A stretch of DNA of 48,694 bases, from NCBI GenBank assembly GCA_934097015.1, contig CAKONF010000004.1:1-48694 (forward strand). Direction: 5' to 3'. The translations under genes and the position numbers were made by a program. This document shows, piece by piece, positions 2,250 through 48,694 of this stretch. Source of the stretch: an uncultured Bacilli bacterium. GTDB lineage: Bacteria; Bacillota_I; Bacilli_A; RF39; UBA660. The notes beneath the pieces are model-generated. The model made no database searches. It saw only the letters and a program-made list of their open reading frames with translations, and was not told the DNA's origin. How positions within the stretch are numbered: the stretch's first letter is position 1; each line of letters begins with the position of its first letter.

Positions 2250-2395
2250 AAATATAACCTTTTTCAATTAACTATATCTAATAAAAGATTACTAGCTAAT
2301 TGATAAAGTTTTTATTTATATTAAAATATATAAAATATCTATACATTTATATTTATATATGCTATACTAATTTTAGAATAAAAGGAGGGTTTAAT

Positions 2396-2494
2396 ATGAA
2401 TGATAGTGATGACAACAAAATTTATTATGGATTAATAATAAGATTGATAATAATAGCAATATTATTATATTGTATTAAAAAATTAAAAGTTTAA
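2396..2494 (+). CDS. Possible 32-aa hydrophobic peptide
   Basis: ATG at 2396 is preceded by AAAGGAGGG (2381-2389). The product MNDSDDNKIYYGLIIRLIIIAILLYCIKKLKV has one predicted TM helix. No homology recognised. Confidence 0.3.
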   Translation: MNDSDDNKIYYGLIIRLIIIAILLYCIKKLKV

Positions 2495-2540
2495 AATTAA
2501 TTTGATAGACTTATTTAAATTTGATAAAATATAGTTAGAA

Positions 2541-5318: not shown

Positions 5319-5411
5319 ACTATCACCTATAATAAAATATTATCATAAATAAATAATTTAGTCTAGTAAATTAAGTTATTATTTGTTATTATATTTTCTG
5401 GAAGTGATAGT

Positions 5412-6842: not shown

Positions 6843-8891
6843 ATGGAACGTAATAAAAAAATTATTATAAGTGTAGTAGGTATAATATTAGTTTTATTAG
6901 GATTAATAGGTTTTACATATGGATATTACTTAACAAATATAAGAGGCAATACAAACGATAAATCTATAACAGTATCTTTAGAAACATTAGAACTAACATA
7001 TGATGATGGAAATGGATTTATAGAAGCAAAGGATGTACTACCAGGAGAAGAAATAACTACAAAGAAATTCACAATAACAAATACAGGTACAAAAAAAGTA
7101 GTTAATTACACAGTATATTTAGAAGATGTAGTAAATACATTTGCAGATAAAAGTGATTTAGATTTAACACTAAAATGTAGTTCTACAAACGGAACATGTA
7201 ATGGAAATGAAATGATATTTCCAAGTAGTAATAGTTTATTAGTATTAAATGATATAGAAGTAGGGGAAGTACAAAGTTATGAACTAAAAGTAGTATTTAA
7301 AGAAACAAATGATGATCAAACAGATAATATGCAAAAGAATATATCAGGAAATATAATAATAAAAGATTTTAGAAGTACAAAACAAGAAATAGTAAAAAAT
7401 GAAGGTACAAAAAATATAACACTTGATAATAGTATATTAACAAACTCATTATTATTATATGGAAATAGTACTCAAGAGACAAGAAGTGGTAAGAACTTAA
7501 TACCTTATCCTTATGCTTCAACTACTTTAACTTCTAATGGTGTTGTATGGACTGACAATAAAGATGGAAGTATTACAACTAGTGGTACAGCAACTGATTA
7601 TTCAGCGTTTATTTTATTTAATAAAATGGACATAAGTGCGTATCAAGGGAAAAATTTAACAGTATCTTTAAATTCAACTGATAATGTTAATATAGTATGT
7701 CAAATAGCACTCTATTCTTCAGATGGAACAACATCACTGTATAGTAATTCATCTAGTAATGATGTGACATTAAGTGTGCCGACTGAAGGAAAATATTTAT
7801 CATTATATTTAAAACGAAATAATAATGTTGCAACTAGTGGAACAATAAGACCACAGTTAGAATTAGCATCTACTGCAACAAGTTATGAAAAATATGGATC
7901 AAGTCCATCACCAAATTATCCAAGTGAAATTAAAAGTGTAGGAGATTTAGTATCGGATGCAAGTGATGCAAACAATGGCAAATATAAAATTCCAGTTAAA
8001 ATTACTGGTAAAAATTTGTTTGATAGCAAAGAATTAATGAATTTTGGTGCAACATTACAAAGTGATGGTAGTTATTATTGGGAAAAAGCCACATCTTCAT
8101 CAAATATTATATGGGAAAACAGTGAAGGTTATACTGGTAGATATACCATTACTTCTAAAATAAAATATAATAGTTCAACAGCTAGAGGAGAGTTTTTTAT
8201 ATTTAATTATACAGATGGTACAAAATATGAATATTGGGGAAGAGGTTTTCCTACTGAATATACTGAATTTACATTTACAACTCCTGCTGATAAAGTACTT
8301 AAAAATATTACAATTAGTTATGGTACTATCAATGTATCTACAAATATGTTAGACATACAATTAGAAAAAAGCAGTACATTAACTGAATATGAGTTATATA
8401 AAGAAACAGTATCAAATATATATTTGGATGAACCATTAAGAAAAATAGGTAATTATAGTGATTATATTGATTTAAAAAATAAAAAAGTTGTTAGAAATAT
8501 TGTAGAATATACTTTTACTGGAAATGAATCTTGGACTTTGGGACAATATCCGCCTACTGGAGCCTATCAATTTTATAAAAATAAATTTACTGATATGACA
8601 TCTGATGTTTCAGAAACTTTAAATACTCATTTTTCGAATGCTAGGAAAATTAATGGAAGTGGACTAGGTGGATCATATAATATATTTCCATCTACTGAAC
8701 TAAATTTAACTACTGTAGATGAATTTAAAACATGGTTAAAAAATAATAATGTAAAAGTAAATTATGTAATTACTACTCCAACAGAAAGTAATATTGATTT
8801 ATCAAATATAAAACTATATGATGGAATAAATAATATAACTATTGATACATCAATTAGTCCATCTAAAATAAGTACAGAATACATTAACTAG
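6843..8891 (+). CDS. Secreted protein with a SipW-type signal peptide and TasA-like N-domain, fused to a different C-terminal region (two 'GKNL...' modules)
   Basis: N-terminus MERNKKIIISVVGIILVLLGLIGFTYGYYLTNIRGNTNDKSITVSLETLELTYDD... parallels the family, as does ...QSYELKVVFKETNDDQTDNMQKNISGNIII. The C-terminal ~470 aa lack the WRIVR domain. Confidence 0.8.
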   Translation: MERNKKIIISVVGIILVLLGLIGFTYGYYLTNIRGNTNDKSITVSLETLELTYDDGNGFIEAKDVLPGEEITTKKFTITNTGTKKVVNYTVYLEDVVNTFADKSDLDLTLKCSSTNGTCNGNEMIFPSSNSLLVLNDIEVGEVQSYELKVVFKETNDDQTDNMQKNISGNIIIKDFRSTKQEIVKNEGTKNITLDNSILTNSLLLYGNSTQETRSGKNLIPYPYASTTLTSNGVVWTDNKDGSITTSGTATDYSAFILFNKMDISAYQGKNLTVSLNSTDNVNIVCQIALYSSDGTTSLYSNSSSNDVTLSVPTEGKYLSLYLKRNNNVATSGTIRPQLELASTATSYEKYGSSPSPNYPSEIKSVGDLVSDASDANNGKYKIPVKITGKNLFDSKELMNFGATLQSDGSYYWEKATSSSNIIWENSEGYTGRYTITSKIKYNSSTARGEFFIFNYTDGTKYEYWGRGFPTEYTEFTFTTPADKVLKNITISYGTINVSTNMLDIQLEKSSTLTEYELYKETVSNIYLDEPLRKIGNYSDYIDLKNKKVVRNIVEYTFTGNESWTLGQYPPTGAYQFYKNKFTDMTSDVSETLNTHFSNARKINGSGLGGSYNIFPSTELNLTTVDEFKTWLKNNNVKVNYVITTPTESNIDLSNIKLYDGINNITIDTSISPSKISTEYIN

Positions 8892-12995: not shown

Positions 12996-13289
12996 ATGTT
13001 ATAGTAGTATATAAAACCTGAGCTTTTGTGTTTGTTAGTGCTTACCCAATCATTATAAAAATGAGAGGGAATGTATAGATGAAAAGAATACTTTATTATA
13101 TTAAAGAAATATTAAAAAGTATATTTTTAATATATGTTTTGAAAATAATCTACTTCCTCCTACAAAAAGGAGTTTAGATTAACTCCAATAGGCACTAAAT
13201 ATTATTTATGTTAGGCTACCTATAATGGTTTGATTAATATCATATTTTACCTCTTAATTTATTTATAATAAAAATAAATATGTTAATGT

Positions 13290-13362
13290 AAAATAAAAGC
13301 CGCATAATTAATATGCGTGCCAACCTTTATGGGTAGGCATTACAAATGTAATTGCTCTACTT
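13290..13362 (-). ncRNA. Candidate ~70-nt small RNA (own promoter, three hairpins, intrinsic terminator)
   Basis: Read on the minus strand: TTGACA(13397-13392)-17 nt-TAAACT(13374-13369). Hairpins GCAATTAC..GTAATGC and GCCTACC..GGTTGGC. Then GCaCGCATA-TTAAT-TATGCGGC followed by TTTTATTTT (13320-13290). Confidence 0.3.
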
Positions 13363-13427
13363 AATATAAGTTTAACATTACGATAGTGATGTGTCAATAA
13401 AAAATTTTACAAATTTCACAAAAAATA

Positions 13428-13600
13428 TTTACAATATTTACTAGTTTTGATATATTATATTTAAGGTAGAAATACCTAAAAACAAATTTTACGATTCATG
13501 AAAAAACAAGAAACATACTTCTTCCCCAACCCCAAAAATCGTTGGGGGGGGGGGTATAAAGAAATATGTTTTTTCGTGCAAATAAAGGAGTGTGAAAGAA
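13428..13600 (+). promoter_or_regulatory. Leader element copy B: promoter, GNRA hairpin and C-rich/G11 terminator-like hairpin abutting the RBS
   Basis: TTTACA(13428-13433)-17 nt-TATATT(13451-13456) with upstream TG. GGTA-GAAA-TACC at 13465-13476. ACATACTTCTT-CCCCAAC-loop-GTTGGGG... with G11 at 13544-13554, then AAGAAATATGT and TTTTTC (13570-13575). RBS AAAGGAG at 13584-13590. Near-identical to the copy at 48563. Confidence 0.65.
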
Positions 13601-15526
13601 ATGAATCGTAAGCAGAAGATAATAGTAAGTACAACAGGAATATTTTTAGTACTTTTAATTCTTGTAGGATTAACTTACGCATATTTTTTAACTAGAATAA
13701 ATGGAAATAAAAACGATAAAAGTATAAGCGTCACAACTGCTAACTTAAGATTAGTATATAGTGATGGAACAGATGGAGTAATAGGTGGAACTAATATAGA
13801 ACCAAGTGATACAGTATACACAAAAACATTTACTGTAAAAAGTGAAGGAAATAAGAATATAGAGTATGGAGTATATTTAATAAACGTGATAAATCAATTA
13901 ACAAGAAAAGAAGATGTTAAATATACATTAGAATGTACAACTGATGGGACGATTACATGTAATGGAGTAAATGAAACAACATTTCCAAGTGGAATAAGCC
14001 AATTAATAACAAATACAATAGAACCCGGAAAAACTCATACATACACATTTAAATTTACATACAAAGATACAGGAACAGACCAAAGTATAGATATGGGAAA
14101 AGAACTAAGTGCAAAGATACAAATATTTGGAAAATTACCAAGTGGAGAATATTTTCCATATGAAGAAGAAACTTTATCATACAACATAATAAATAATGCA
14201 AAAAACAATTTAAATGGTACAGAATATTTAGAAACGCCTAAAACAAAAGTAGCTGAAGAAGTAGTTGAATTTAAATATAAAGCTATAGAGAAAAATTTAC
14301 CCGGGAATAATATTCAATCAGCACCTCCAACTTATAAAGATTACTATATTACTTATGGTACTGGTTATACACTTGATGAAAATACTGGCAAATTTTCTTT
14401 AACAGGAGTATCAACTTGTAAATATAGTGAATGCTATTCTAATTTAGCGGGAAAATACATATATGCTCTAATAGTCTCTGCTTCAGAAACTGATATACAA
14501 AAAGAGTCGAGCAATTTATCTGAAATTTTTAAGATTAAAAAGGCTTCTGAACCATCTTCAACTTCAATTTCCGTGGAAGGAACTACTTTTACAACAACTG
14601 CTTATGGAACTGAAAAAGTTTTAAGTAAAACTGAAGATGACTATGGTATAAGTTATTATTATAGGGGAGTTGTTGAAGATAATTATGTAAATTTTGCAGG
14701 AATGTGTTGGAGAATAGTACGCGTTTCTGGAGATGGAAGCATTAAATTAATATTAGAAGACCAAGATAATACTTGTACTTCAAGTAATGGTAATACTACT
14801 ACAACAAGTGGCTTAATCGAGAACTTTGGTTATACTGAATATGCGGTAAATACACTAACTGCAACAGACGGAACAACCAATTCATCTAAATTGAGATTAA
14901 TGAACTACCTAAAGGGTGGAACATATAATGATAAATCAATGGCAACAGCATTTAAAAATTTCCAAATTGAAACTCTCACAAATTATTTATCTTATTTAAA
15001 ATCGGGAGATTGGTGTTTAAATGATAAAGCATATGCAACAGAAACTGATAATACAACACCATTAACTAGTCAAGAAATATTGGATAAACGAATTAAAGGA
15101 ATAGCATACTATTACGATTCATATATACGTTTATATGGAAAAACATCAAAAGAACCAACATTAAAATGTAATGGTACAAATATGATGAAATTTGGTGATG
15201 GAACAACAAATATGTATGTAGGAACATTAACAGTAGATGAAGTAGCATATGCTGGCGGCTCAACTACTAGAAATTCTAAAGGATATTATTACATATCAAA
15301 AAAAATTCCTTTATTATCACCAGCATATATAGTTATCGCTTCCAATCCTTCAACGTCCATAAATGAGCAACTGGTATTTTACGCTTCCGATAATGCAAAA
15401 ATAAGTTTGACATCATTATCCCAAATGGAAAACTTATATTTTAAACCTTCCATAAATCTAAAATCAGGAATTAAAATTTCAAGTGGAGATGGAACAAAAG
15501 AAAAACCTTATGAAATAGCAAATTAA
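13601..15526 (+). CDS. Secreted surface protein, family member (TasA-like N-domain + variable middle + WRIVR/GDGT-PY C-domain)
   Basis: MNRKQKIIVSTTGIFLVLLILVGLTYAYFLTRINGNKNDKSISVTTANLRLVY (SipW-type signal). KFTYKDTGTDQSIDMGKELSAKIQI. NFAGMCWRIVRVSGDGSIKLILED. KPSINLKSGIKISSGDGTKEKPYEIAN*. Confidence 0.9.
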   Translation: MNRKQKIIVSTTGIFLVLLILVGLTYAYFLTRINGNKNDKSISVTTANLRLVYSDGTDGVIGGTNIEPSDTVYTKTFTVKSEGNKNIEYGVYLINVINQLTRKEDVKYTLECTTDGTITCNGVNETTFPSGISQLITNTIEPGKTHTYTFKFTYKDTGTDQSIDMGKELSAKIQIFGKLPSGEYFPYEEETLSYNIINNAKNNLNGTEYLETPKTKVAEEVVEFKYKAIEKNLPGNNIQSAPPTYKDYYITYGTGYTLDENTGKFSLTGVSTCKYSECYSNLAGKYIYALIVSASETDIQKESSNLSEIFKIKKASEPSSTSISVEGTTFTTTAYGTEKVLSKTEDDYGISYYYRGVVEDNYVNFAGMCWRIVRVSGDGSIKLILEDQDNTCTSSNGNTTTTSGLIENFGYTEYAVNTLTATDGTTNSSKLRLMNYLKGGTYNDKSMATAFKNFQIETLTNYLSYLKSGDWCLNDKAYATETDNTTPLTSQEILDKRIKGIAYYYDSYIRLYGKTSKEPTLKCNGTNMMKFGDGTTNMYVGTLTVDEVAYAGGSTTRNSKGYYYISKKIPLLSPAYIVIASNPSTSINEQLVFYASDNAKISLTSLSQMENLYFKPSINLKSGIKISSGDGTKEKPYEIAN

Positions 15527-19643: not shown

Positions 19644-20240
19644 ATGAATAAATTAAATAAAAAACAAATATTAGTTTTAATAATAGTTATAATATGTATA
19701 ATAGGCAATACAATATGTCTCATTATTACTGCAAACTTTTATATGATAAAAAAAACAATAGAATTAACCAGTACTGCAACACAAAATAATATAACAAATA
19801 TTTATGAAGAAAGCATAGAAGATAATGATTACTATAGTGGTGTTATAATATACAATATAGATTTTAATATAAATGATTTATTTAATATAAATGATTTATT
19901 TAATATAAATATTCCAAAAACTTTTATAGAAGATAATAAAAATGAATATAAAAGTACAAATAATGAGTGTAGTTTTTCATTAAAACAAATAGATAATTAT
20001 GATAATGCATATCTTTTAGCACAAGGGTTAAATAAAACATACAATAACACTAGCAACATAATAGTATCTACAACAAATAACATAAAATGGTATGAAATAG
20101 ATTATGAAATACATGGAATAACATATCATTACTTAACAGAAATAGATAATAAAATATATAGTTTTGAATTTACAGTTAATAATAATGAAGATTGTATTAA
20201 CTGTAAAGATTTAATTATAAATAGTATTACAATTAAATAA
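19644..20240 (+). CDS. Membrane-anchored protein of unknown function between the tasA-like gene and sipW
   Basis: RBS AAGGAG. N-terminal TM helix ILVLIIVIICIIGNTICLIITANFYMI. Contains an in-frame NINDLF tandem repeat. No recognisable motif. Confidence 0.65.
   Translation: MNKLNKKQILVLIIVIICIIGNTICLIITANFYMIKKTIELTSTATQNNITNIYEESIEDNDYYSGVIIYNIDFNINDLFNINDLFNINIPKTFIEDNKNEYKSTNNECSFSLKQIDNYDNAYLLAQGLNKTYNNTSNIIVSTTNNIKWYEIDYEIHGITYHYLTEIDNKIYSFEFTVNNNEDCINCKDLIINSITIK
19864..19910 (+). repeat. 18-bp tandem repeat, about 2.6 copies (TTAATATAAATGATTTAT)
   Basis: Direct reading. Encodes NINDLF-NINDLF-NIN inside the CDS 19644..20240. Confidence 0.9.
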
Positions 20241-20301: not shown

Positions 20302-21021
20302 ATGATGAAAAAAATGAATAAAAGGGAACGTAGAAAAGTCTTTAGATATTATATTAATAGAGCAATGAAACTTCTTTCATACGCTGTAATAGTTGTACTT
20401 ATATTTTTAGGTATCTTTTTTGCATACTATTTTATATCTTTAAAATTATATGAGAAAAATCCAACAGTTAATATTCCTAAGTTCGGATTATACACAATAA
20501 TTAGTCCAAGTATGGAACCAAACGTAAAAGTATACGATGTCGTTGTTGATTTAAATATTTTTAATGAAGATGATGTAAAAAAAGGGGATATTATAACATT
20601 TGTCTCAAACAGTAATGTATCAAAAGGTTTAACTGTCACACATAGAGTAGTAGATATTATAACAAATAGCGATGGAAGTAAGTCATATATTACAAAAGGA
20701 GACAATAACTTAAAAGCAGACCAAGCTACTGTTAGTTATAAAGATGTATTAGGAAAAGTATTATTTAAAATACCTCAATTAGGTAGAGTACAGTTCTTAA
20801 TAGCAGATAAATTTGGATGGTTATTAGTAATATTAATACCAGCATTAGGAGTTATTATATATGATTTTATAAAATTATTTAGATTATTAGCATTTAATAA
20901 TAAATTTATGAGATTTAGTACAATAAATAAAAAAATAGATACAGAAATAGATGTCGATGATTTAAACCAAATAAGAGAAGGTTTAGATACAGTTAAAAGA
21001 TTCTATAATAGAAAGAATTAG
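20302..21021 (+). CDS. sipW: Archaeal/ER-type signal peptidase I (SipW-like)
   Basis: SPSMEP (nucleophile Ser), VTHRV (His), TKGDNN, and the extra C-terminal TM helix (WLLVILIPALGVIIYDFI) typical of SipW rather than P-type SPases. Confidence 0.8.
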   Translation: MMKKMNKRERRKVFRYYINRAMKLLSYAVIVVLIFLGIFFAYYFISLKLYEKNPTVNIPKFGLYTIISPSMEPNVKVYDVVVDLNIFNEDDVKKGDIITFVSNSNVSKGLTVTHRVVDIITNSDGSKSYITKGDNNLKADQATVSYKDVLGKVLFKIPQLGRVQFLIADKFGWLLVILIPALGVIIYDFIKLFRLLAFNNKFMRFSTINKKIDTEIDVDDLNQIREGLDTVKRFYNRKN

Positions 21022-27148: not shown

Positions 27149-27320
27149 TTGATTACTAATTGTTAATTTGATATATTATATTTAGAGTAGAGTTGTTAAA
27201 AAATGAATTATTATATATTGTTGAAAAGTTAATTAAAGGCTGTATAACTTCTCTCCCGACCTCGAATATTTGTTCGGGGGGGGGGGTTATAACGAAGTTA
27301 AAAATATGGTCTTTTTTTGT
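27149..27320 (+). promoter_or_regulatory. Leader element copy C: promoter and long terminator-like hairpin with G11
   Basis: TTGATT(27149-27154)-17 nt-TATATT(27172-27177). Outer arms AAAGGCTGTATAACTTC.../...GAAGTTAAAAATATGGTCTTT pair with G-U wobbles relative to copy A. Core CCCGACCTCGAA-TATTTG-TTCGG. G11 at 27276-27286. T7 at 27312-27318. Confidence 0.6.
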
Positions 27321-27366
27321 GTGCTATATCGACAAAATATTCTAGTAAAATATGCTTTAATAAAAC

Positions 27367-27383
27367 TAGTACTATAGGCCCAT
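27367..27383 (+). promoter_or_regulatory. Conserved 17-mer TAGTACTATAGGCCCAT (also at 1724-1740) between leader hairpin and gene
   Basis: Identical 17-mer in copies A and C, each followed ~25-30 nt later by AAAAATTATATAATA (a possible second -10). Confidence 0.4.
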
Positions 27384-27440
27384 GTTAATAATAAAACAAA
27401 AATTATATAATAATTATATATGATAAGGAGTAGATATCAA

Positions 27441-27983
27441 ATGACAAAGAAAGAAAAAATAATAGTTAGTACGGCAGGAATATTTTTAGTACTTTTAATT
27501 CTTGTAGGATTAACTTATGCGTACTTTTTAACAAGAATAAAAGGAAATACAAATGAAAAGAGTATAAGTGTATCGACAGCAAATTTAATATTAGAATACG
27601 CAGATATAGACGATATTGTTGTAGGTGGAGAAAATGTAGAACCAGGTACAACATGGACTAAAAAATTTAGTGCAACAAATAAAGGTAGTAAAAAAGTAGA
27701 ATATGGTGTGGCACTAGAAAATGTTTTAAATACATTAGAAAGAACAAAAGACTTAGTATATACGTTAAATTGTACCAGTAGCTTAGGGACAGATTGTAAT
27801 AAAGTAGAAACAGAACAAGAGTTTCCTGTAATAGGAACAATATTAATAACAAATAACATAGAACCAGAAGAAGTACAAAGTTATGAACTAATAGTTTCAT
27901 ATAAAGAACAAAATGAAGATCAAAATGTTGATATGAATAAAAAAATATATGCAAAGGCAAATATAGTAGATCCAAAAACATTT
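27441..27983 (+). repeat. 543-bp direct repeat shared with 29313..29855 (N-terminal domain cassette)
   Basis: The first 181 codons of the two tandem genes differ at 13 aa positions by my hand count. Similarity stops abruptly after 'IVDPKTF'. Confidence 0.85.
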
Positions 27984-29300
27984 AATGTATATGAAAAATC
28001 TCAGTTAAATAATATTATAATTGCAAGTGCACGTAATGCAAGTAATAATAGTGATAGTAAAAGAACTTCTTATGGTAGTGAAATAACTGCATTTGATTCT
28101 ATTACATGGACTAAATATTATGATGAATTTACAACTTCATATGAAGAAACTAATCCAAGTATAACGTATTGGCAAATAGCAGATACATTTAATGATATAG
28201 AAAATAATAATACAACAAAACCAACTACAATAACAGAAGCAGTTGGAAAATATATAAATATTTCGTATCCAGACTATAAAATAGTATTTTTAGAATCATA
28301 TAATGAAACAACTCAAGTTGCAACATTTAAAAATTTAAAAGTTGAATATGAAAAAGTTTTAAACAATGCTCCAGATGATTATGGAACAAGTTATTATTAT
28401 AGAGGAAATCCCCAAGATAATTATGTATCATTTGCAGGATTGGTATGGAGAATAGTAAGAATAAATGGAGATGGAACTGTAAGAATAATATTAGATGATG
28501 AAGGAATAAAAACAGCATTTAATAGCTATGAAAATGTTTATGCAGATAATGCTGGAGTAGGATATATGTATGGAACACCAGGAAGTGATACATATTTAAA
28601 AACACACGAAAATATTAATAGTAGTACTGTTAAACAAGTCCTTGATTCTTGGTATGAAGAAAATATAGAAAACAATACATTACATTATGAAAAGTATTTA
28701 GCAGATACATTATTTTGTGGTGATAAATCATTAGCAGATAAAGATTTAGTTCAAAATGATGGAACTGGTCTAGGTTATGGAAAAAATAAAACATATTATA
28801 AAAAAACAGAAAATTCTATAAAATTAGTCGAAAATGTTTTAACATTAAAGTGTGCTAATTATGAAGATAATAATTATTCAAAGTACACATCAAAGCTTGA
28901 AAATAATACAACTATAAACGACAAAATAAATATTAATAATGATCTAAAACATCCTATAGGACTAATATCGTTTGATGAAGTGGTATACGCTGGATTTAAT
29001 GGAAAAACTCCATACGGTTTTAATTATGGATATTATTTATATAGAACAGATTTTGTTAATTATGTGTTCTGGAGTATGACACCTTCAGTTATGGTGGATG
29101 ATAATACTTATGTATATACATTTAATAAAAATATTAATTTTGCAACAACTGTTTCAAAAGAAGAAATATTAAACCAACGTTTAAATACAATAATTGAATA
29201 TAGAGCTAGACCAGTAATAAATTTACGTTCAGACTTATTAATAAGTAGTGGAGATGGAACAGAAACAAATCCATATCAAGTAAAATTGCCAACAGAATAG
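27441..29300 (+). CDS. Secreted surface protein, family member (first of a tandem pair)
   Basis: RBS AAGGAG. MTKKEKIIVSTAGIFLVLLILVGLTYAYFLTRIKGNTNEKSISVSTANLILEY. SFAGLVWRIVRINGDGTVRIILDD. ARPVINLRSDLLISSGDGTETNPYQVKLPTE*. Confidence 0.9.
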   Translation: MTKKEKIIVSTAGIFLVLLILVGLTYAYFLTRIKGNTNEKSISVSTANLILEYADIDDIVVGGENVEPGTTWTKKFSATNKGSKKVEYGVALENVLNTLERTKDLVYTLNCTSSLGTDCNKVETEQEFPVIGTILITNNIEPEEVQSYELIVSYKEQNEDQNVDMNKKIYAKANIVDPKTFNVYEKSQLNNIIIASARNASNNSDSKRTSYGSEITAFDSITWTKYYDEFTTSYEETNPSITYWQIADTFNDIENNNTTKPTTITEAVGKYINISYPDYKIVFLESYNETTQVATFKNLKVEYEKVLNNAPDDYGTSYYYRGNPQDNYVSFAGLVWRIVRINGDGTVRIILDDEGIKTAFNSYENVYADNAGVGYMYGTPGSDTYLKTHENINSSTVKQVLDSWYEENIENNTLHYEKYLADTLFCGDKSLADKDLVQNDGTGLGYGKNKTYYKKTENSIKLVENVLTLKCANYEDNNYSKYTSKLENNTTINDKININNDLKHPIGLISFDEVVYAGFNGKTPYGFNYGYYLYRTDFVNYVFWSMTPSVMVDDNTYVYTFNKNINFATTVSKEEILNQRLNTIIEYRARPVINLRSDLLISSGDGTETNPYQVKLPTE

Positions 29301-29312
29301 GAAGTGAATTAA

Positions 29313-29855
29313 ATGACAAAGAAACAGAAAATAATAGTAAGTACGACAGGAATATTCCTAGTACTTTTAATTCTTGTAGGATTGACTTATGCATATTTCT
29401 TAACAAGAATAAAAGGAAATGAAAATGAAAAAAGTATAAGTGTATCAACTGCAAACTTAATATTAGAATATGCAGATATAGATGACATTGTTGTAGGTGG
29501 AGAAAATGTAGAACCAGGCACAACATGGACTAAAAAATTTAGTGCAACAAACAAAGGTAGTAAAAAAGTAGAATATGGTGTAGCATTAGAAAAAGTTGTA
29601 AATACTTTAACGAGAAGATCGGATTTAGTATATACGTTAAATTGTACTAGTAGTTTAGGGACTACTTGTAATAAAGTAGAAACAGAACAAGAATTTCCAA
29701 TAATAGGAACAATACTAATAACAAATAACATAGAACCAGAAGAAGTACAAAGTTATGAATTAATAGTTTCATATAAAGAAATGAATGAAGATCAAAGTGT
29801 TGATATGAATAAAAAAATATATGCAAAGACAAATATAGTAGATCCAAAAACATTT
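29313..29855 (+). repeat. Partner of the 543-bp direct repeat at 27441..27983
   Basis: See 27441..27983. Confidence 0.85.
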
Positions 29856-31193
29856 GGGGCATTAGGAAGTGGAACACTTGCTAGTGCCTTAGTTGAAAGT
29901 GCAAAAACTGCTGCTGCTTCAAATGATCAAATAAGAACAATTTATAAAGAAGTTCCATTAACTAGTCCTGGAAATGAAATTAGTATAACTAAATACAAAA
30001 CAGAAAATGAAAGTGGAATAGAATTTAATACAGAAGAAGAATTTTCTATAGAAGAACAATATCAAAATTATTATTGGACTTATGCTACAGGTTATAGTGT
30101 TGATGAAACTACAGGAAAAATGTCCTTAAATAGTCCAACTGTTTCAGAAAAACAATATAATTCTATGTATAATGAATTAGTTGGAAAATATATAGCTTCA
30201 TCTACAATACCTAACAACTGTAAAGAAACCCAAATTATAGCAGAAAACACCAAAAATTTAAATAATATATACAAAATCACATCAGCAACCAATTCTAAAT
30301 TAACAGTAAAAAGAATTATACCCACTGCTATTAGTCAAGAAAAAACTTTATCTTTGAGCGAAGATGATTATGGATTAAGTTATTATTTTAGAGGTGGTAT
30401 TGTAGATAATTATGTTAATTTTGCAGGAATGTGTTGGAGAATAGTCAGAATTCAAGGAGATGGAAGTGTCAAAGTAGTTTTGGAAGACAAAAATACAACG
30501 TGTGAATCAAATCAGTATACTGGTAATTGGAATTATTCAAAAGTTAATTTTGGATATGATTACACTAATGGAAAAGATAGAATTCCAGCATTTTTAAATC
30601 CTATTACTGAAAAAGAAACTGCATTAGCTACAAAAGCAGAGGAATTTCAATCTGAATTGGATAAAAAAATAAAACAAACATATGGAGAAAATGAAAGCAA
30701 TTCATCTAAATTAAAAGCAGGAGATTGGTGTTTAACAGAAAAAATATATAATTCTTACTATACAACAGCGGGTTTAAGACTATGGAAAGATGATACAAGA
30801 TATGCATCAAATATTTGTGATGGCACAAAACTAACAAATTTTTATGATAATAAAGATATGTATGTTGCTACATTGACTGCAGATGAAATAGTTTTTTCAG
30901 GGACGATAGTAATATCAAACGATAGCATTCATAATGTTTATAACACAAGTCATTATCTATTTAATGATTATATGTTAGAATTAGAAGACAAAAGTTCATT
31001 TAAATATTATACACTAACATATAGCAGTAAATTAGTTTATTATAGAGTATTTACCGTAGCAGTTCCAGGATTTATTGTCCCACAAATGGCAAACTTTGGA
31101 GAAATAGATTTTAGACCAGCAATAATTTTATCCTCAGATACACAATTATTAAGCGGAAATGGATTAAAAACAAACCCATACGAAATAAAATAA
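29313..31193 (+). CDS. Secreted surface protein, family member (second of the tandem pair)
   Basis: Start lies 12 nt after the previous stop, RBS GGAAGTGA. Same N-domain. NFAGMCWRIVRIQGDGSVKVVLED, GDWCLTEK and FRPAIILSSDTQLLSGNGLKTNPYEIK*. Confidence 0.9.
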   Translation: MTKKQKIIVSTTGIFLVLLILVGLTYAYFLTRIKGNENEKSISVSTANLILEYADIDDIVVGGENVEPGTTWTKKFSATNKGSKKVEYGVALEKVVNTLTRRSDLVYTLNCTSSLGTTCNKVETEQEFPIIGTILITNNIEPEEVQSYELIVSYKEMNEDQSVDMNKKIYAKTNIVDPKTFGALGSGTLASALVESAKTAAASNDQIRTIYKEVPLTSPGNEISITKYKTENESGIEFNTEEEFSIEEQYQNYYWTYATGYSVDETTGKMSLNSPTVSEKQYNSMYNELVGKYIASSTIPNNCKETQIIAENTKNLNNIYKITSATNSKLTVKRIIPTAISQEKTLSLSEDDYGLSYYFRGGIVDNYVNFAGMCWRIVRIQGDGSVKVVLEDKNTTCESNQYTGNWNYSKVNFGYDYTNGKDRIPAFLNPITEKETALATKAEEFQSELDKKIKQTYGENESNSSKLKAGDWCLTEKIYNSYYTTAGLRLWKDDTRYASNICDGTKLTNFYDNKDMYVATLTADEIVFSGTIVISNDSIHNVYNTSHYLFNDYMLELEDKSSFKYYTLTYSSKLVYYRVFTVAVPGFIVPQMANFGEIDFRPAIILSSDTQLLSGNGLKTNPYEIK

Positions 31194-31202
31194 ATACTCT
31201 TA

Positions 31203-31226
31203 AAGTACTTATAAAGTACTTTTTTT
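31203..31226 (+). terminator. Rho-independent terminator
   Basis: AAGTACTT-ATA-AAGTACTT followed by a T-run. Same AGTACT core as the terminator at 15525. Confidence 0.7.
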
Positions 31227-36558: not shown

Positions 36559-37686
36559 ATGAAAGATATAATTGATGAGTATATAGATATATCAAAAAAA
36601 CATCTTAATACTATACTTATAAATTTAGAATCTAATATAGAATTTTTAGATAATAATTTATGGAAAGATAGTAATGAGTTTAAAAACTTAGTAGCTGATA
36701 TAGTTAATATATATTATGACAAATATTATTTATATAATAGTAATGATTTTAAAATAATAGATAAATATATAAAATTTAATAATAAAATCAATAGAAAATT
36801 AAAAACAATTATATTATCTATAATAGAATATTTTGAAAAAAATCAAATAGAAAATAAAATAGAAAAAGATGAAGAATCAATTCTTTACTTAACAATATTA
36901 ATATATTTGAGTTTAATATTATATGAAAAAGACTATAACTTAATTGATACACCAAAAAAGATAGAAAAAGAAATAAATAATGTTATAGATAACTTTAGAG
37001 ATATAAGATTTAAAAGAGAAAAAAATCTATTTGATTTAATAAATAATATAAAAGACATAATAATATCAAATAATAATTTTAATAAGTTAATAAACAAATT
37101 AAATACTAAAGATAGTCATAACTATTTTATAAAAATAAATAATAAATTAAATCTTTATAAAGTAATATATGAATATGATATAAAAGAACTTAATGATTAT
37201 AATGAATTAGATATTAATATAGTAAATAATAAAATAAATATTACAAATATTTTAAATGGAATATCTTATGATTTAGCATATTTTACAGCATTTAAAATGT
37301 TAAAAAATGGAATCAATAATATATTATTATTTAAAATAAGCAAAGAAGAAATATTAAATGATAAAATTTTAGATTACATGACAAAAAGAAATAAAAAAAT
37401 AAATGATAATATAAAATTTTTAATAGATTATGAAGATATAAAAAATAATTACGAATTAGTAAATAAAATAAAAGATAAAGGTATTGATATTTACATAGAA
37501 ATAAATAAAGTGATAGAAACAGATAACTATAATATGTTTATGGATATAAATAATGTTATAGTACCAGAAGAATTTCTTAGTTTAAATGAAAAATATGTAG
37601 AGATATGGAAAGACATGAATATGAATTTCATAATAAAAGATTTAAAAGATAAAGTAGAAGAAAAAAATCTATTAATTAGAAAGTGA
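36559..37686 (+). CDS. Hypothetical cytoplasmic protein, first gene of the McrB-like operon
   Basis: RBS AAGAGG. 375 aa, N/K/I-rich, no TM helix and no motif I recognise. Stop overlaps the next gene. Confidence 0.65.
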   Translation: MKDIIDEYIDISKKHLNTILINLESNIEFLDNNLWKDSNEFKNLVADIVNIYYDKYYLYNSNDFKIIDKYIKFNNKINRKLKTIILSIIEYFEKNQIENKIEKDEESILYLTILIYLSLILYEKDYNLIDTPKKIEKEINNVIDNFRDIRFKREKNLFDLINNIKDIIISNNNFNKLINKLNTKDSHNYFIKINNKLNLYKVIYEYDIKELNDYNELDINIVNNKINITNILNGISYDLAYFTAFKMLKNGINNILLFKISKEEILNDKILDYMTKRNKKINDNIKFLIDYEDIKNNYELVNKIKDKGIDIYIEINKVIETDNYNMFMDINNVIVPEEFLSLNEKYVEIWKDMNMNFIIKDLKDKVEEKNLLIRK

Positions 37687-37694
37687 GTGTTAGT

Positions 37695-39191
37695 ATGAAT
37701 AATTATGGTAAATTTTTTGTTGATTTTTTAACTCCTTTTTTTGAAGGACTAGTATCTATTTTTAAATCTCTATTTAAAGGAATATTTGAAATGTTAAATA
37801 TTGTTAAATATGGAGAGATAATTGAAAAATATAAAGGAACAGTAAATACTGTATTCGTCATAATATCTATTATATGTTTAATATTATTATTAGGATTATT
37901 TGCATATTTAGTATATTATATAATAAAGAAAATAATGAAAGTTGTTAGAAAAAGTCACGAACAAGATTCATTACTTGAAGAAGTTGAAAAACTTAATTAT
38001 GATATGATTAAACTAAAACAAGAAAATGATAAATTAACTACAATGGCAGAAAATGCTGGTGGTGAATTAGATGAAAATGGAAATCCTATCACAAAAATTG
38101 GTAAGGGTGAAAGTAGATTCTATAAATTAAGTAAATTAGATGCAGAATGGGCTAATTACAAACCAGAAAAACCATTTGAAAACAATTTAACATTAGAACA
38201 AATATGTGATAGATTCAGAAATTATTCAGCAAGTGTTTTAGGATTATACTATACACCAGATTTAATTAGATTATTTATATCAGCTTTTGGAGCAAGTAGA
38301 CTATTAATATTACAAGGTATATCTGGTACAGGTAAAACTTCTCTTGCATATGCATTTGGACATTTTTTAGGAAATGACTCTGTTATTGCACCAGTACAAC
38401 CATCTTGGAGAGATAGAACAGAATTATTTGGATATTTCAATGAATTTACAAAAAGATTTAATGAAACAGAATTATTAAGTAAAATGTACGAAGCTACATA
38501 TAATGATAAAATATATGTTACAATACTAGATGAAATGAATATAGCACGTGTAGAATATTACTTTGCAGAAATGTTATCAATTATGGAAATGCCATCAAAA
38601 AAAGAATGGGTTGTTAACTTAGTTGCAACACCATGGGAAAGTGATCCTAAAAAAATAGTTAATGGTAATTTTACATTACCAGGAAATATGTGGTATATAG
38701 GAACAATTAATAACGATGACTCAACATTTATGGTTACAGATAAAGTTTACGATAGAGCAATGCCTATTGATATAAATGAAAAATGTGCTAAATTTGATGC
38801 ACCTAAAACTGATGGTATAAATATTAGTGATGAATATTTTGAAAAATTATTTGATGAAGCGCTAGAAAAATATCCAGTTAGTAGTGAAATGTTAAAGAAA
38901 TTAGATGAATTAGACCAATATATAATAGAACACTTTAGAATATCATTTGGTAATCGTATTATGAGACAAATAAATGATTTTGTTCCAGCATATGTTGCTT
39001 GTGGAGGAAAAGAAGTTGATGCAATAGATTACCTAATAGCAAGTAAAATATTAAGAAAATTTGAACAATTAAATTTAGCATTCATAAAAAATGAATTAGA
39101 TGAATTTATCAATTACTTAAATGTACATTTTGGAAAAGAAAACATGAATAAATGTAAAGATTTCATATTAAGATTAAAAAAATCTATGTAG
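37695..39191 (+). CDS. Membrane-anchored, coiled-coil McrB-family AAA+ GTPase
   Basis: TM helix VFVIISIICLILLLGLFAYLVYYII followed by KK. Coiled coil (LLEEVEKLNYDMIKLKQENDKL). Walker A LQGISGTGKTS. Walker B ILDEMNIARVEYYFAEMLS. McrB-type GTINNDDST...DKVYDRA (NxxD). An alternative GTG start lies at 37683. Confidence 0.8.
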   Translation: MNNYGKFFVDFLTPFFEGLVSIFKSLFKGIFEMLNIVKYGEIIEKYKGTVNTVFVIISIICLILLLGLFAYLVYYIIKKIMKVVRKSHEQDSLLEEVEKLNYDMIKLKQENDKLTTMAENAGGELDENGNPITKIGKGESRFYKLSKLDAEWANYKPEKPFENNLTLEQICDRFRNYSASVLGLYYTPDLIRLFISAFGASRLLILQGISGTGKTSLAYAFGHFLGNDSVIAPVQPSWRDRTELFGYFNEFTKRFNETELLSKMYEATYNDKIYVTILDEMNIARVEYYFAEMLSIMEMPSKKEWVVNLVATPWESDPKKIVNGNFTLPGNMWYIGTINNDDSTFMVTDKVYDRAMPIDINEKCAKFDAPKTDGINISDEYFEKLFDEALEKYPVSSEMLKKLDELDQYIIEHFRISFGNRIMRQINDFVPAYVACGGKEVDAIDYLIASKILRKFEQLNLAFIKNELDEFINYLNVHFGKENMNKCKDFILRLKKSM

Positions 39192-39198
39192 GTGAGTT

Positions 39199-40290
39199 AT
39201 GTTAAAGAATATAACAGATGTAATGAATAATATTAATGTTAGTGATCTAGATAATTTTATATCAAATACAAATGCAAATTTTATGTGTATATCAGATATA
39301 AAAGAAACAAAAATAGATTACAATTGGTTAAATGTATTAGAAGATACATTACCAAATCTAGACAAAATAGTTAGAAATCCAAGAAGATTTATAGTTCAAG
39401 AAGAAGATGTTGTTATAGTTGAAAAAACAAAAAGAGTTTCACAAGAAACAATAAAACATTTAGCACAACATTGTGAAAATATACAAGATATAGATGAAAA
39501 TGGAGATGTAGTTCCAAAAAAATTACTAAACGTACATAAAGAAGATACAACAGATTTATATGAAAACAGATTTATATATACACTAGTATTAAGATTAGAG
39601 TCATTTATAAATAGACAATTAGAAAACTTAGAATTAGTTAGCAACAAAGAAGTAAAAAAAACTATAAGTTATAAAGCAGAAACTAACATAAAAAACAAAA
39701 AAATTAACATAGAACTTAAAATGAATGAAGAAGATAAAATAGATTTAAATGAATATGGTAGTGATTATAAAAATAGAATACTTGCTTGTTATGATGTAAT
39801 AAGTGGATTCAGAACTACAGAAATGATAAAAGAATTAGTAGGATGTAGCTTAGTAAAAAATCCCATAAGAAAAACAAATCTTATACTAAGACAACCTGAT
39901 TTCCAAAAAGCATTTGTATTATGGCAATACTTAGATAACTTTGAATATAAAGATCCTAAAGTAGTAAGCTTTGATAGAATTACAAATAATAGCAAAGAAA
40001 CTAAAGACGAATTTACACTAGGATATTTCATAGATAGCAATGCAGTTGATGAGAAACATGAAAACCTAATGAAATATAGAAATATAGATGCTAAATTAAA
40101 TAAATTATTAAATGACTATGTATATGAAGATGAACAAAATATAGAACAATTTTTAATAACTACAAAAAAATATTACGAACAAGCATTAACTGATAAACAA
40201 AATAGACAAAATAATATAATAAATATTTATAATCAATTTATAAAAAAACATAAAGATAATATTAATGAAATAAAAGAATTATTGAATTAA
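39199..40290 (+). CDS. McrC N-terminal/DUF2357-like partner protein without a recognisable nuclease domain
   Basis: 'DLYENRFIYTLVLRLESFI' matches the (T/D)xxENRF motif I associate with DUF2357/McrC-like proteins. 'LRQPDFQKAFVLWQYL' resembles their conserved '..Y..ly.lW..L'. I could not find a D...(D/E)xK motif in the C-terminal 100 aa. Confidence 0.55.
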   Translation: MLKNITDVMNNINVSDLDNFISNTNANFMCISDIKETKIDYNWLNVLEDTLPNLDKIVRNPRRFIVQEEDVVIVEKTKRVSQETIKHLAQHCENIQDIDENGDVVPKKLLNVHKEDTTDLYENRFIYTLVLRLESFINRQLENLELVSNKEVKKTISYKAETNIKNKKINIELKMNEEDKIDLNEYGSDYKNRILACYDVISGFRTTEMIKELVGCSLVKNPIRKTNLILRQPDFQKAFVLWQYLDNFEYKDPKVVSFDRITNNSKETKDEFTLGYFIDSNAVDEKHENLMKYRNIDAKLNKLLNDYVYEDEQNIEQFLITTKKYYEQALTDKQNRQNNIINIYNQFIKKHKDNINEIKELLN

Positions 40291-40308: not shown

Positions 40309-41607
40309 ATGGCAAAAAAAGATAATAAAAAAAAGAAAATAAAAAGATTATCTAAATCGGATGTAAAGACAACAATAATAAAACTTGAAGATTTAGAAAA
40401 ATTAAGCGTTGAAGATCAAGAAAAATTATTTGAAGATACATTTGACAAAATATACTCTGGTGAAGAAATAGAATCATTAAGAAAATATTCCCTTAGATGT
40501 ATCAAATTAACTTGTGATCCTAAAGATAATAAAATACATTTACCATATGGAGTGCTAGTACAAAAAAAAGGTAATGAAATAATAATAAAAGTATATCAGA
40601 ATAGACATTGGTTTTTAATAATGTTATTCTTAACACTATTAGCACTTGCTATAGTAGGAGCAAGTTATTCTGCAGTAAATTATAAAATAATACAAAATTT
40701 AAATAAAGATATAGATGGTGATGGAATACCTGATATAAATTTAGATTTAAATAATGATAGAGTTGCTGAAGTAAATGTAGATACAAATAATGATGATAAA
40801 CCAGATGTTAATATAGATTATAAAGGAAATAGAAAAGCTACATTTAATATTGATACAGATAATGATGGAATACCAGATTTTAATTTAATGAATCAAGACA
40901 CAGATAATGATGGAGTTTGCGATATAAACTGTGATATAAATGGAGATGGATGGCCTGATATCAACCTAGATCTAGATGGAGATGGAAAAGTTGATATGGA
41001 AATAGATACGGATAAAGATAAAAGAGCAGATTTAAACTTCGACATGAATGGTGATGGAATATGTGATCTACACTGTGATACAACAGGCGATTTAAAATGT
41101 GATAAATATTGTTTAAAGAGTGAAGATTTAGAAAATGTAGATCCAAGCAATAGCGGAAGCAGTAAAAATGTAGGTAATAAAGATTACTCCGTAAAAGCAG
41201 GAGAATTAGTATTAGAATATGAAGATGATAACACAGTATTTATTGAAAATATATACCCTGACGATCAACCATATTATAATGGAAAAGTACCTCCAAAGAG
41301 ATTCAAAATAACAAATAAATCATCAATATTTATAAAATATAATTTAAAATGGATAATAACTGAAAATAACTATTTAACAGATAATTTTAAATATAGCATT
41401 ACAAGTACAAATAATGGAGTTAATTTTGATTTTAAAACAGCTCCTAAAGAAGATTCAGTTATAGCAACTAGTATAATAATTCCACCAAATACAACACAAG
41501 ACTATGAAATGAATTTCAAATTACAAGGAACTGGTGGAAAACAAAATGAAGATCAAAATAAAACATTTGCAGGACATGTAGAAGTATATTTAGATAATGA
41601 ATATTAA
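40309..41607 (+). CDS. Single-pass membrane protein: cytoplasmic N-domain, TM, thrombospondin-type-3-like Ca-binding repeats, Cys-rich segment, C-terminal TasA-like beta-sandwich
   Basis: TM helix WFLIMLFLTLLALAIVGASY. About 10 D-x-D-x-DG-x-x-D units (DIDGDGIPDINLD, DTDNDGIPDFN, DINGDGWPDINLD, DLDGDGKVDMEID...). C-terminus ELVLEYEDDN...KRFKITNKSS...QDYEMNFKLQGTGGKQNEDQNKTFAGHVEV aligns with the family N-domain. Confidence 0.8.
   Translation: MAKKDNKKKKIKRLSKSDVKTTIIKLEDLEKLSVEDQEKLFEDTFDKIYSGEEIESLRKYSLRCIKLTCDPKDNKIHLPYGVLVQKKGNEIIIKVYQNRHWFLIMLFLTLLALAIVGASYSAVNYKIIQNLNKDIDGDGIPDINLDLNNDRVAEVNVDTNNDDKPDVNIDYKGNRKATFNIDTDNDGIPDFNLMNQDTDNDGVCDINCDINGDGWPDINLDLDGDGKVDMEIDTDKDKRADLNFDMNGDGICDLHCDTTGDLKCDKYCLKSEDLENVDPSNSGSSKNVGNKDYSVKAGELVLEYEDDNTVFIENIYPDDQPYYNGKVPPKRFKITNKSSIFIKYNLKWIITENNYLTDNFKYSITSTNNGVNFDFKTAPKEDSVIATSIIIPPNTTQDYEMNFKLQGTGGKQNEDQNKTFAGHVEVYLDNEY
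40708..41106 (+). repeat. Coding tandem array of Asp-rich Ca-binding-type repeats
   Basis: Residues ~134-266 of the 40309 protein. Periodic GAT/GAC-rich ~33-39-nt units are visible in the DNA. Confidence 0.7.
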
Positions 41608-48574: not shown

Positions 48575-48694
48575 TTTAAAAATGATATATTATATTTAAG
48601 GTAGAGATACCTAAAAACAAATTTTACGATTCATGAAAAAACAAGAAACATACTTCTTCCCCAACCCCAAAAATCGTTGGGGGGGGGGGTATAA
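48563..48694 (+). promoter_or_regulatory. Leader element copy D (B-type), truncated by the window end
   Basis: TGATATATT extended -10 (48583-48591). GGTA-GAGA-TACC at 48600-48611. The rest is near-identical to 13477-13557, including G11 at 48679-48689. Confidence 0.6.

Follow-up and report, generated by a model that had tools for sequence, protein, structure and literature searches.

Putative SipW-processed TasA-type surface proteins with variable lectin-like heads in an uncultured gut Bacilli bacterium

What are the proteins encoded by a dispersed gene family whose members share an N-terminal domain and then diverge abruptly, and what keeps one part alike while the rest differs? This question was raised by a 48,694-nt contig of an uncultured Bacilli bacterium (CAKONF010000004.1 of assembly GCA_934097015.1; the whole contig is hereafter called the window), which carries five large paralogues of the family (A, B, C, D and E), a short TasA-like gene (F) and one decayed copy. 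Our analysis led us to propose, with a probability of about 70%, that the family consists of exported surface proteins of uncultured low-GC gut Bacilli, in which a SipW-processed TasA-type domain is joined to a variable lectin-like head, and that these proteins have been diversified by recombination.

The genes named in the first-pass annotation, which was made from the letters of the sequence, were borne out by the open reading frames (ORFs) and their translations. All the named members are intact ORFs on the plus strand, A being truncated at its 5′ end by the end of the contig. Member A (1-1494) is represented by its last 497 codons and was recognized from its translation and its BLASTP matches to C, D and E. 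Member B (6843-8891) encodes 682 amino acids (aa), with a TasA-like N-domain (residues 1-175) followed by a different C-terminal module devoid of DUF6273. Member C (13601-15526, 641 aa) comprises an N-domain (1-180), a middle region (181-340) and a DUF6273-type C-domain (341-641). Members D (27441-29300, 619 aa, with an alternative upstream ATG at 27420) and E (29313-31193, 626 aa, with a hypervariable loop at residues 571-600) form a tandem array, of which D is the first gene; E starts 12 nt past the stop codon of D and is therefore probably co-transcribed with it. Member F, which begins at 18662 and ends at 19567, encodes 301 aa, whose N-domain contains insertions and aligns to the N-domains of the family. 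Pairwise BLASTP comparisons among the members gave E values from 1e-18 to 1e-140. The signal motif (T/F)(Y/F)(A/G)Y(F/Y), said in the first-pass annotation to be shared by the family, was found in a six-frame search of the window at the starts of B, C, D, E and F, with one unrelated match in a signal peptidase as the sole other occurrence. Likewise, the claim that D and E share 181 N-terminal codons with 13 differences and then diverge abruptly proved exact: residues 1-181 contain exactly 13 differences, and beyond them the identity is 13-37% per 30-residue window, except in one conserved motif block.

The proposed decayed copy also proved real. It lies at 1805-2250 on the plus strand, where an ORF fragment opens with a signal-like start; it contains stop codons and retains the C-terminal end 'NGDGTKTNPY'. 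A tblastn search with E gave an E value of 7e-4 at 2088-2237. Its N-terminus belongs to another subfamily, of which an intact 547-aa relative was found in a related genome (L043). On the other hand, the view of A as a mosaic of other window copies, with a C-domain near-identical to that of C, did not survive measurement. A and C share 55-57% of their C-domain residues, and a recent chimeric origin of A from C, D and E was rejected on two grounds: its closest relative (P0065) is colinear with it over the full length at 56% identity, and the 'FG-LGSGTLAS' junction is a family-conserved motif (G.GTLA in 57 of 120 homologues). The strain comparisons reported here were all made with contigs assembled from short-read metagenomes, some at about 3x coverage. 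Among them, a full-length orthologue of A was found in L113; it encodes 555 aa, is located between infB and rbfA, and matches A at 498 of the 498 residues compared. In L113 (3672-9077, corresponding to window 1-2903), which lies on the contig NODE_150, both A and the decayed copy stand between infB and rbfA, within an otherwise kept rimP-nusA-ylxR-infB-rbfA-truB string.

The family is large. More than 1,000 relatives were found in human, rabbit and goat gut metagenomes, and no descriptive name was given to any listed homologue in the sources checked. The nearest public sequences to the window come from Hadza and other human gut metagenomes, and the remoter relatives belong to metagenome-assembled genomes (MAGs) of human, rabbit and goat gut that bear the label 'uncultured Bacilli' or 'uncultured Tenericutes'. 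At least seven paralogues lie in or adjoin the 49-kb contig, and at least 14 loci were counted in one related MAG. One locus (L072) is on a contig labelled Phocaeicola vulgatus, which was probably mis-binned, all other family loci being from low-GC Bacilli MAGs.

To which known proteins is the shared N-domain related? D matched the Pfam family PF12389 (Peptidase_M73) with 24.1 bits, above the gathering score of 22.5, its residues 5-190 aligning with model positions 4-182 of 196, signal included. E scored 20.4 bits, below the threshold, in an alignment spanning nearly the whole model. In addition, the homologues P0012, P0015, P0017, P0065, P0296 and P0330 carry precomputed PF12389 assignments. 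When a profile of the N-domain was searched against the PDB, Bacillus subtilis TasA (5of1) was the sole match at E ≤ 10, with an E value of just 0.48, and the aligned region starts where mature TasA starts; D and B, each searched singly against the PDB, returned nothing useful. The AlphaFold2 (AF2) model of full-length E, with a mean predicted local confidence (pLDDT) of 84.6 and a predicted template modelling score (pTM) of 0.80, consists of a helix (3-33), a disordered segment (34-47, pLDDT 45), a beta-sandwich (51-176), a second helix (189-203), the middle region (210-335) and the C-domain (339-626). In a Foldseek search with this model, the sandwich matched the TasA-like archaeal bundling pilin AbpA (7ueg_A) with an E value of 2e-3 and a probability of 0.99. 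Taken together, the Pfam score of D, the PF12389 homologues, the 5of1 profile match and the 7ueg fold match support the kinship with TasA and camelysin that the first-pass annotation had suggested. In both TasA and AbpA, cleavage by SipW is followed by polymerisation through donor-strand exchange (PMC9674648, PMC9245690). The disordered residues 34-47 that precede the sandwich in the monomer model of E are compatible with a donor strand, without being evidence for one.

A further sandwich of this type was noticed in the ORF at 40309-41607, just past an McrB-like/DUF2357 (McrC-like) gene pair at 37683-40290. This ORF encodes a membrane protein unrelated to the family, whose N-terminus is cytoplasmic and which has a single transmembrane helix and an extended Asp-rich run of D-x-D-x-D-G repeats with the look of calcium binding. 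The sandwich, encoded at 41167-41559 on the plus strand, forms its C-terminus, aligns with the N-domains of the family (tblastn with D, 30% identity over 138 aa, E 1.5e-4) and is not preceded by a SipW-type signal.

The strongest contextual evidence for a TasA relationship is a gene that the first-pass annotation had missed. The ORF at 20302-21021 on the plus strand encodes a SipW-type (archaeal/ER-type) signal peptidase I, which scored 96.4 bits against TIGR02228 (cutoff 51.85) and 82.8 bits against the model of B. subtilis SipW, and whose translation contains the motifs SPSMEP, THRVV and KGDNN. Since this sipW gene lies two genes after F, we regard F, the intervening gene orf198 and sipW as a tasA/sipW-like cluster behind a two-component system. 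The gene orf198 (19644-20240, plus strand) encodes a small membrane-anchored protein that matched no family; it contains a short tandem peptide repeat (NINDLF), its product varies from 192 to 198 aa, and it is 94-100% identical between strains, its neighbours being 99.6-100% identical. The likeness of the family signal TYA-YF to TWA-AF of TasA was seen by eye and in the alignment of the N-domains with TasA. Thus, of the SipW-type signal described in the first-pass annotation, the peptidase gene and the alignment of the motif with the TasA cleavage site lend support to the processing, whereas membership of TIGR04088, the SipW-cognate signal family, was not reached by score; one homologue scored 13.6 bits against that model. 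Judged from these sequence features, it is reasonable to infer that the family would be processed by SipW.

The C-domains of A, C, D and E were then the subject of a separate set of searches. The first-pass annotation had suggested a DUF6273-type fold. At E ≤ 1, no direct match to DUF6273 (PF19789, Pfam threshold 23.5 bits) was obtained with the six window proteins or with the 20 C-domains of the family alignment A1; NCBIfam scans were also empty, and a profile search of the PDB with the C-domain found nothing. A profile built from the 20 C-domains collected 8,782 representative clusters among 1.84 billion proteins, and it matched P0122, P0125, P0126 and P0168 end to end, with per-domain E values of 1e-30 to 1e-52. 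In these four proteins, Pfam DUF6273 scored 100.5, 51.6, 39.4 and 27.4 bits, respectively, inside the same domains, ending about 18 residues short. The AF2 model of the E head (pLDDT 82, pTM 0.87) found as its best PDB match the Thomasclavelia ramosa IgA protease (9qa6), weakly, with an E value of 3e-3 over about 322 columns and a template modelling (TM) score of 0.31. Among viral models (BFVD), three of its five best matches are named DUF6273, again weakly (E 0.03-0.07, TM 0.47-0.52 on the target). Residues 31-322 of 9qa6 are annotated as DUF6273 (PMC12402451), and for the DUF6273 part of the IgA protease an expanded form of the C-type-lectin-like domain has been described (PMC12237041). The DUF6273 domains of gut phages act as lectin-like binders of receptors and are targets of diversity-generating retroelements (DGRs) (PMC10743442, bioRxiv 10.1101/2024.10.15.618418). 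The distant homology through intermediate sequences and the agreeing, if weak, fold matches support the assignment of the C-domain of A, C, D and E to a divergent, lectin-like form of DUF6273; the suggestion of DUF6273 thus stood by way of intermediates and fold, and found no direct Pfam match in the window proteins.

The C-domain had also been described as conserved, which applies to its first approximately 50 residues and its last strands; just before those last strands it holds the most variable loop of the whole protein. Residues 571-600 of E had a column entropy of 2.86 bits in the family alignment, by far the highest, compared with 0.4 in the conserved motif block. The lectin-like domain is far more widespread (the 8,782 representative clusters mentioned above) than its fusion to a TasA-like domain. 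It also occurs in P0121 (4905 aa), P0122, P0125 and P0126, giant proteins with 6-11 tandem lectin-like domains together with VWA, Big_2 and Listeria-Bacteroides repeat domains.

Member B carries another module in the place of this head. The homologues of its C-terminal part (window 7368-8888) have N-termini of PF12389 (TasA-like), PF07963 (type IV pilin N_methyl) or PF17974/LRR type. The occurrence of this payload behind TasA-like or type IV pilin N-termini fits a module that is mounted on a filament subunit. In other genomes, the B-type head is used on different filament scaffolds.

How, then, do the members stay alike in one part and differ in the rest? The tandem array of D and E contains a direct repeat on the plus strand, one copy covering the N-domain coding block of D (27436-27983) and the other that of E (29308-29855); they are 90.9% identical over 548 nt, and the similarity ends abruptly. 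Comparison with contigs from other samples, whose housekeeping genes are 99-100% identical to those of the window, revealed that the interval between rluD and a lipoprotein gene, which in the window holds D and E, contains three genes of 549, 559 and 626 aa in the independent assemblies L001 and L002, and at least four genes, with the D orthologue last, in a third assembly. Homology to the three-gene strain breaks at 27975-27983, the end of the D N-domain, and resumes at 29203, about 100 nt before the stop codon of D. The amino-acid identity between different array genes is 88-98% in the N-domain, 25-70% in the middle region and 26-67% in the C-domain. For D and E, the synonymous divergence (dS) amounts to 0.34 in the N-domain and to 0.74-0.90 in the rest. 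Between orthologous E genes the order is reversed, with 0.23 in the N-domain versus 0.03-0.06 downstream. Low dS between the N-domains of paralogues together with high dS between those of orthologues is the pattern expected from gene conversion of the N-domain. The pairwise homoplasy index (PHI) test on the N-domain DNA of eight array paralogues gave p < 0.0005 with 67 informative sites, and two array genes, L1E and L3h2, are identical over nt 190-560, their downstream parts being 46-68% identical. These results showed that the N-domains within the array have been homogenised by recombination or gene conversion. The N-domains of the dispersed members A, B and C are just about 38-62% identical to one another and to those of the array, indicating that the homogenisation is local to the array. 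The recombination breakpoints and the variation between strains, both anticipated by the first-pass annotation, were thus found, the former in the PHI test, the two breakpoints and the discordant identities of the N-domain and the remaining parts, and the latter in an array of two, three or at least four genes between flanks that are 99-100% identical.

The upstream neighbours of A and C differ between contigs (window 12996-13600 and both window ends, compared with L005, L097, L100, L108 and L114); past the radical-SAM gene, one contig continues with an A-like gene and another with a C-like one, and many contigs end inside the shared leader and 5′ N-domain repeat. These differing neighbours reflect either true rearrangements at family genes or joins that the assembly made through a repeat of about 300 nt.

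The single-copy members showed a different degree of variation. B is 99.5% conserved between strains, and F is 100% identical in seven strain contigs. C falls into two allele classes across seven independent contigs, with flanks 99-100% identical, a middle region 83.8% identical at the nucleotide level and a C-domain 92-94% identical. The differences between the two classes are concentrated in sharp patches (residues 221-243, 285-333 and 559-613), whose borders are identical among the contigs. In patch 559-613, the proportions of synonymous (pS) and nonsynonymous (pN) differences are 0.24 and 0.28, compared with 0.011 and 0.018 in the adjacent core. The differences in this patch use all base types and all three codon positions, which argues for an imported segment and not for DGR mutagenesis. 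The patch corresponds to the same stretch as residues 571-600 of E, the most variable of the family.

A leader with a run of guanines precedes several of the family genes. In the leader of C (13428-13600, plus strand), a promoter-like site (13428-13456) is followed by a long hairpin with G11 (13544-13554), a U-run and a ribosome-binding site; its folding energy (dG) is -32.2 kcal/mol (z -4.4). In the leader of D (27149-27440, plus strand), two promoter-like sites enclose a hairpin with G11 (27276-27286) and a U-run (dG -33.4, z -4.6; 84.3 bits with a covariance model of the leader). The same hairpin lies upstream of the decayed copy (1497-1770, plus strand), with G5 only (1645-1649); this leader is 77% identical to 27228-27412, folds with -28.9 kcal/mol (z -4.9) and scored 63.9 bits with the covariance model. 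A third leader of the C type (48583-48694, plus strand) is 99.1% identical to 13448-13559 over 112 nt and contains G11 (48679-48689), and the contig breaks off within it; in contigs L097 and L100 another family gene comes next. These three G11 tracts, in the leaders of C, D and the gene past the right end, are the only runs of at least seven G or C in the window. In the hairpin, the G run forms the 3′ inner arm, paired with a CU-rich arm, and the U-run comes next. The outer stem covaries in 19 leader copies from several species, with AU replaced by GC in six and UA by CG in five to six. A scan of 903 kb with the covariance model returned 29 leaders, every one of them on the coding strand; the ones inspected, namely the 19 seed copies together with L081 and L055, immediately precede family genes. 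The window and related loci, 808 kb in all, contain 25 G or C runs of at least seven, each of which is on the coding strand upstream of a family-type gene or at a locus end. No Rfam family was found for the leaders at gathering scores or at permissive E values, generic hairpin models scoring far below threshold. These features make the leader a candidate attenuator or phase-variation element.

The leader was also seen in L018, L025, L026, L034, L036, L043, L045, L046, L051, L054, L058, L064, L069, L081, L084, L087, L094-L096, L113 and L114, with runs of G8-G12. The run in the leader of A is G10 in L113 and L115 and G11 in L114; L025 has G11 versus G10 in its orthologue L094, and near-identical paralogous leaders of one MAG have G8, G9 and G10, differences in length to which homopolymer sequencing errors may contribute. 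In other species, poly-G tracts (G8-G13) stand between TTGACA and TATAAT, with spacers of 16-19 nt, upstream of genes for the same lectin-like domain (L015 at 6797, L040 at 4543, L060 at 1665, L075 at 4743, L077 at 5023 and L089 at 5270). This TTGACA-Gn-TATAAT arrangement has the classical layout of slipped-strand promoter switches. A role of the poly-G run as a sigma-70 promoter spacer was considered for the window and rejected, as the spacing does not fit there; it fits in several related species.

On these grounds, we propose the following model. Each large member consists of a signal ending in TYA-YF, a TasA/camelysin-type sandwich of about 130 residues, a short helix and a variable middle region, with a DUF6273-type head of about 290 residues and probable C-type-lectin-like fold in A, C, D and E, and another payload on the same N-domain in B. 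The SipW-type peptidase (20302-21021) would remove the signal, and the TasA-like domain would anchor the protein in or on a TasA-type fibre, which may be a homopolymer or be built of the invariant F, with donor-strand exchange as in TasA. The lectin-like head would bind a ligand (a host or dietary glycan, mucus or another cell) or act as a decoy for phages or antibodies. We infer these three steps, namely SipW cleavage, docking or polymerisation of the TasA-like domain, possibly on an F fibre, and ligand binding by the head, from the features described above. The diversification, by contrast, is shown by the comparisons above. At the DNA level, the N-domain block of about 545 nt, together with the last approximately 100 nt of the preceding gene, serves as a portable homology tract. 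Gene conversion keeps the N-domain block of the array 88-98% identical; through unequal crossing-over and segment replacement, strains come to differ in how many middle and head cassettes they have and in which ones; and the single-copy members swap short patches, the hypervariable loop included. Transcription of A, C and D would pass through the leader hairpin with its G10-11 run, so expression may be switchable. We tentatively extend this to a possible surface-variation system of a previously undescribed kind, in which SipW-processed TasA-type fibres, or subunits docked on fibres, bear interchangeable lectin heads, the fibre-domain block acts as the recombination handle and poly-G slippage switches genes; it would be the wall-bearing counterpart of the variable lipoproteins of mycoplasmas.

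Several results weigh against this interpretation. D alone among the window members scored above the Pfam threshold for PF12389, and A, B, C and F gave no match to it. TasA itself was absent from the top 50 Foldseek matches, where generic beta-sandwiches and pilins score alike. None of the proteins reached the cutoff of TIGR04088 (19 bits): F scored 15.9 as a whole and 18.8 with its N-terminus alone, and B, C and D gave no match at E ≤ 10. In the AF2 model, the signal forms an extended helix (3-33), which would fit an uncleaved membrane anchor equally well. The fold matches of the C-domain are weak, with E values of 3e-3 to 7e-2 and TM scores of 0.3-0.5. Repeats of 90-98% identity are prone to assembler chimeras or collapse, and many contigs break exactly in the array repeat, so the mosaics and the differences in copy number could in part be assembly artefacts. 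Finally, the leaders of C and D have G11 in every contig examined, and for this reason phase variation by slippage is put forward as a conjecture and not as a finding.

Some of these points agree with the main rival explanation, which we consider rather unlikely and according to which the proteins are monomeric surface adhesins, held by an uncleaved signal-anchor or released, with the TasA-like sandwich as a mere stalk and no fibre. The continuous helix 3-33 of the AF2 model, followed by a disordered linker, and the TIGR04088 scores are in keeping with it, as is the ORF at 40309-41607, where the same sandwich occurs on a clearly membrane-anchored protein; the C-terminal load of about 450 aa per subunit could moreover hinder a TasA-like packing. 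It is opposed by the alignment of TYA-YF with the cleavage site and mature N-terminus of TasA, by the location of the sipW gene near a short TasA-like gene, and by the homologues of the B payload on type IV pilin N-termini, that is, on filament subunits. It is improbable, in our view, that ordinary duplication and divergence suffice, with the N-domain kept by purifying selection alone, the strain differences and mosaics being assembly artefacts, and no variation system existing. Strong constraint on the N-domain is indeed indicated by its dN/dS of 0.05-0.13, the singletons B and F are stable, and the data are short-read metagenome contigs, some at low coverage, that break in the repeat. Nevertheless, for two genes on one contig, dS is 2-3 times lower in the N-domain than elsewhere in the pair, and in orthologues the relation is reversed; selection at the protein level explains neither pattern, which counts against purifying selection alone. 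An artefact is further opposed by the three-gene arrangement, which was assembled independently in two samples (L001 and L002), and by the two allele classes of C, which recur in seven independent contigs with the same patch borders.

Two other explanations were judged very unlikely. One is that the heads are diversified by a DGR or that the genes encode receptor-binding proteins of a prophage. DUF6273 is a known DGR target with its variable region at the C-terminal end (PMC10743442; bioRxiv 10.1101/2024.10.15.618418), and the hypervariable loop described here also lies near the C-terminal end of the domain. However, neither a reverse transcriptase nor a phage gene was found within the window, the genes stand between core genes such as infB and rbfA, a tblastn search with the E head gave no match in 50,697 phage records, and the allele differences in the loop include all base types and codon positions, with a pS of 0.24, instead of being adenine-directed. 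A DGR acting on the hypervariable loop was accordingly rejected on its substitution spectrum and the gene content of the window. On the other explanation, the members are secreted metalloproteases of the camelysin type whose lectin domain binds the substrate, on the model of the IgA protease. The name of the Pfam family, Peptidase_M73, invites it, yet TasA is now regarded as a subunit of fibres and not as a protease. No protease or catalytic family was detected in any member, and no HExxH-type motif is visible in the translations of A-E. The sole solved DUF6273 does belong to the IgA protease, but the domain is dispensable for catalysis by that enzyme (PMC12237041).

Our proposal of SipW-processed proteins with lectin-like heads can be compared with several known systems. 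The family resembles TasA/CalY with SipW, as known from Bacillus biofilm fibres, BsaA of Clostridium perfringens and the archaeal AbpA bundling pili, in the aromatic-Ala-aromatic signal motif, the PF12389 sandwich and the sipW gene near the short TasA-like F. It differs from them in that the large members carry about 450 extra residues (middle region and lectin-like head), that the genes occur as scattered singletons and one tandem array instead of a tapA-sipW-tasA operon, and that there are many paralogues per genome; furthermore, the fibres of the present family are putative. With the DUF6273 proteins (the N-terminal domain of the T. ramosa IgA protease, the phage tentaclins and the Mtd-like DGR targets), it shares homology via intermediates, the best fold matches, a lectin-like core and a C-terminal hypervariable stretch. 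Unlike in those proteins, the domain in the window comprises about 265-290 residues, compared with 172 model positions, and scores below the Pfam threshold; the family is chromosomal, not of phages, and varies by recombination between paralogues and not by a retroelement. The two-domain tip adhesins of the FimH type likewise join a variable domain of lectin type to a conserved one for polymerisation or docking, and the weak Foldseek matches include the chaperone-usher pilins FimA and CfaB as well as the tip adhesin CupB6. Neither the families nor the secretion routes are related, and the two domains come in the opposite order; the comparison is an analogy only.

The organization of the family is also reminiscent of pilE/pilS and opa of Neisseria, vlp, vsa and MgPa of Mycoplasma and vlsE of Borrelia, in which paralogues with a conserved block and variable cassettes undergo gene conversion and unequal crossing-over, strains differ in content, and homopolymer tracts lie upstream of genes. 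One feature of phase-variable loci, a homopolymer tract in the leader of surface-protein genes, is present here (G11, in C and D). In contrast to pilE/pilS, a bank of silent cassettes lacking promoters was not seen: each intact copy is equipped with a start codon and a signal, a separate leader precedes each of A, C and D, and the sole silent copy is the decayed fragment. A further difference from these systems is that the present family was seen to vary between strains, and switching within a clone is a hypothesis. No TasA-DUF6273 fusion family was described in the literature searched, in which work on TasA-type fibres and on DUF6273 was found. Each of the components and evolutionary processes is known; no description appears to exist of their combination, of the scale it reaches in uncultured gut Bacilli or of the poly-G leader specific to the family.

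The remainder of the window has an ordinary character. Its G+C content is 16-29% (typically about 23%), nearly all its genes are on the plus strand, and those outside the TasA-lectin family have ordinary core functions: rbfA, a DHH phosphoesterase gene, truB, thiI, a P-type ATPase gene, gmk, a patatin-like lipase gene, yebC, a two-component system, tyrS, a sigma factor gene, lspA, rluD, a PNP/GNAT protein gene, the McrBC-like pair, a class II tRNA synthetase gene, two tRNAs, maf and a radical-SAM protein gene. Between the divergent ORF 4656-5318 (minus strand) and thiI (plus strand), an imperfect palindrome of about 113 nt (5309-5421) is 78% self-complementary. The ends of the contig fall in a leader and 5′ repeat that is found at no fewer than three loci. 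A circular contig was considered, as an A-like gene follows the right end in L097 and A opens the window; it was ruled out because A lies after infB in the 134-kb contig NODE_150.

The significance of these results lies in what they may add to three lines of work. TasA-type fibres are known as plain biofilm scaffolds, and exchangeable lectin-like heads, if true, would extend this system to targeted adhesion. DUF6273 is a domain without an assigned function that recurs in the gut, in the IgA protease, in receptor-binding proteins of gut phages and in giant surface proteins, and here it would form the variable business end of the protein. The poly-G leader is a candidate for a new cis-regulatory element specific to the family. 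With its defined strain breakpoints and alleles, the family provides a test system for surface variation in commensals under pressure from immunity, phages or glycans.

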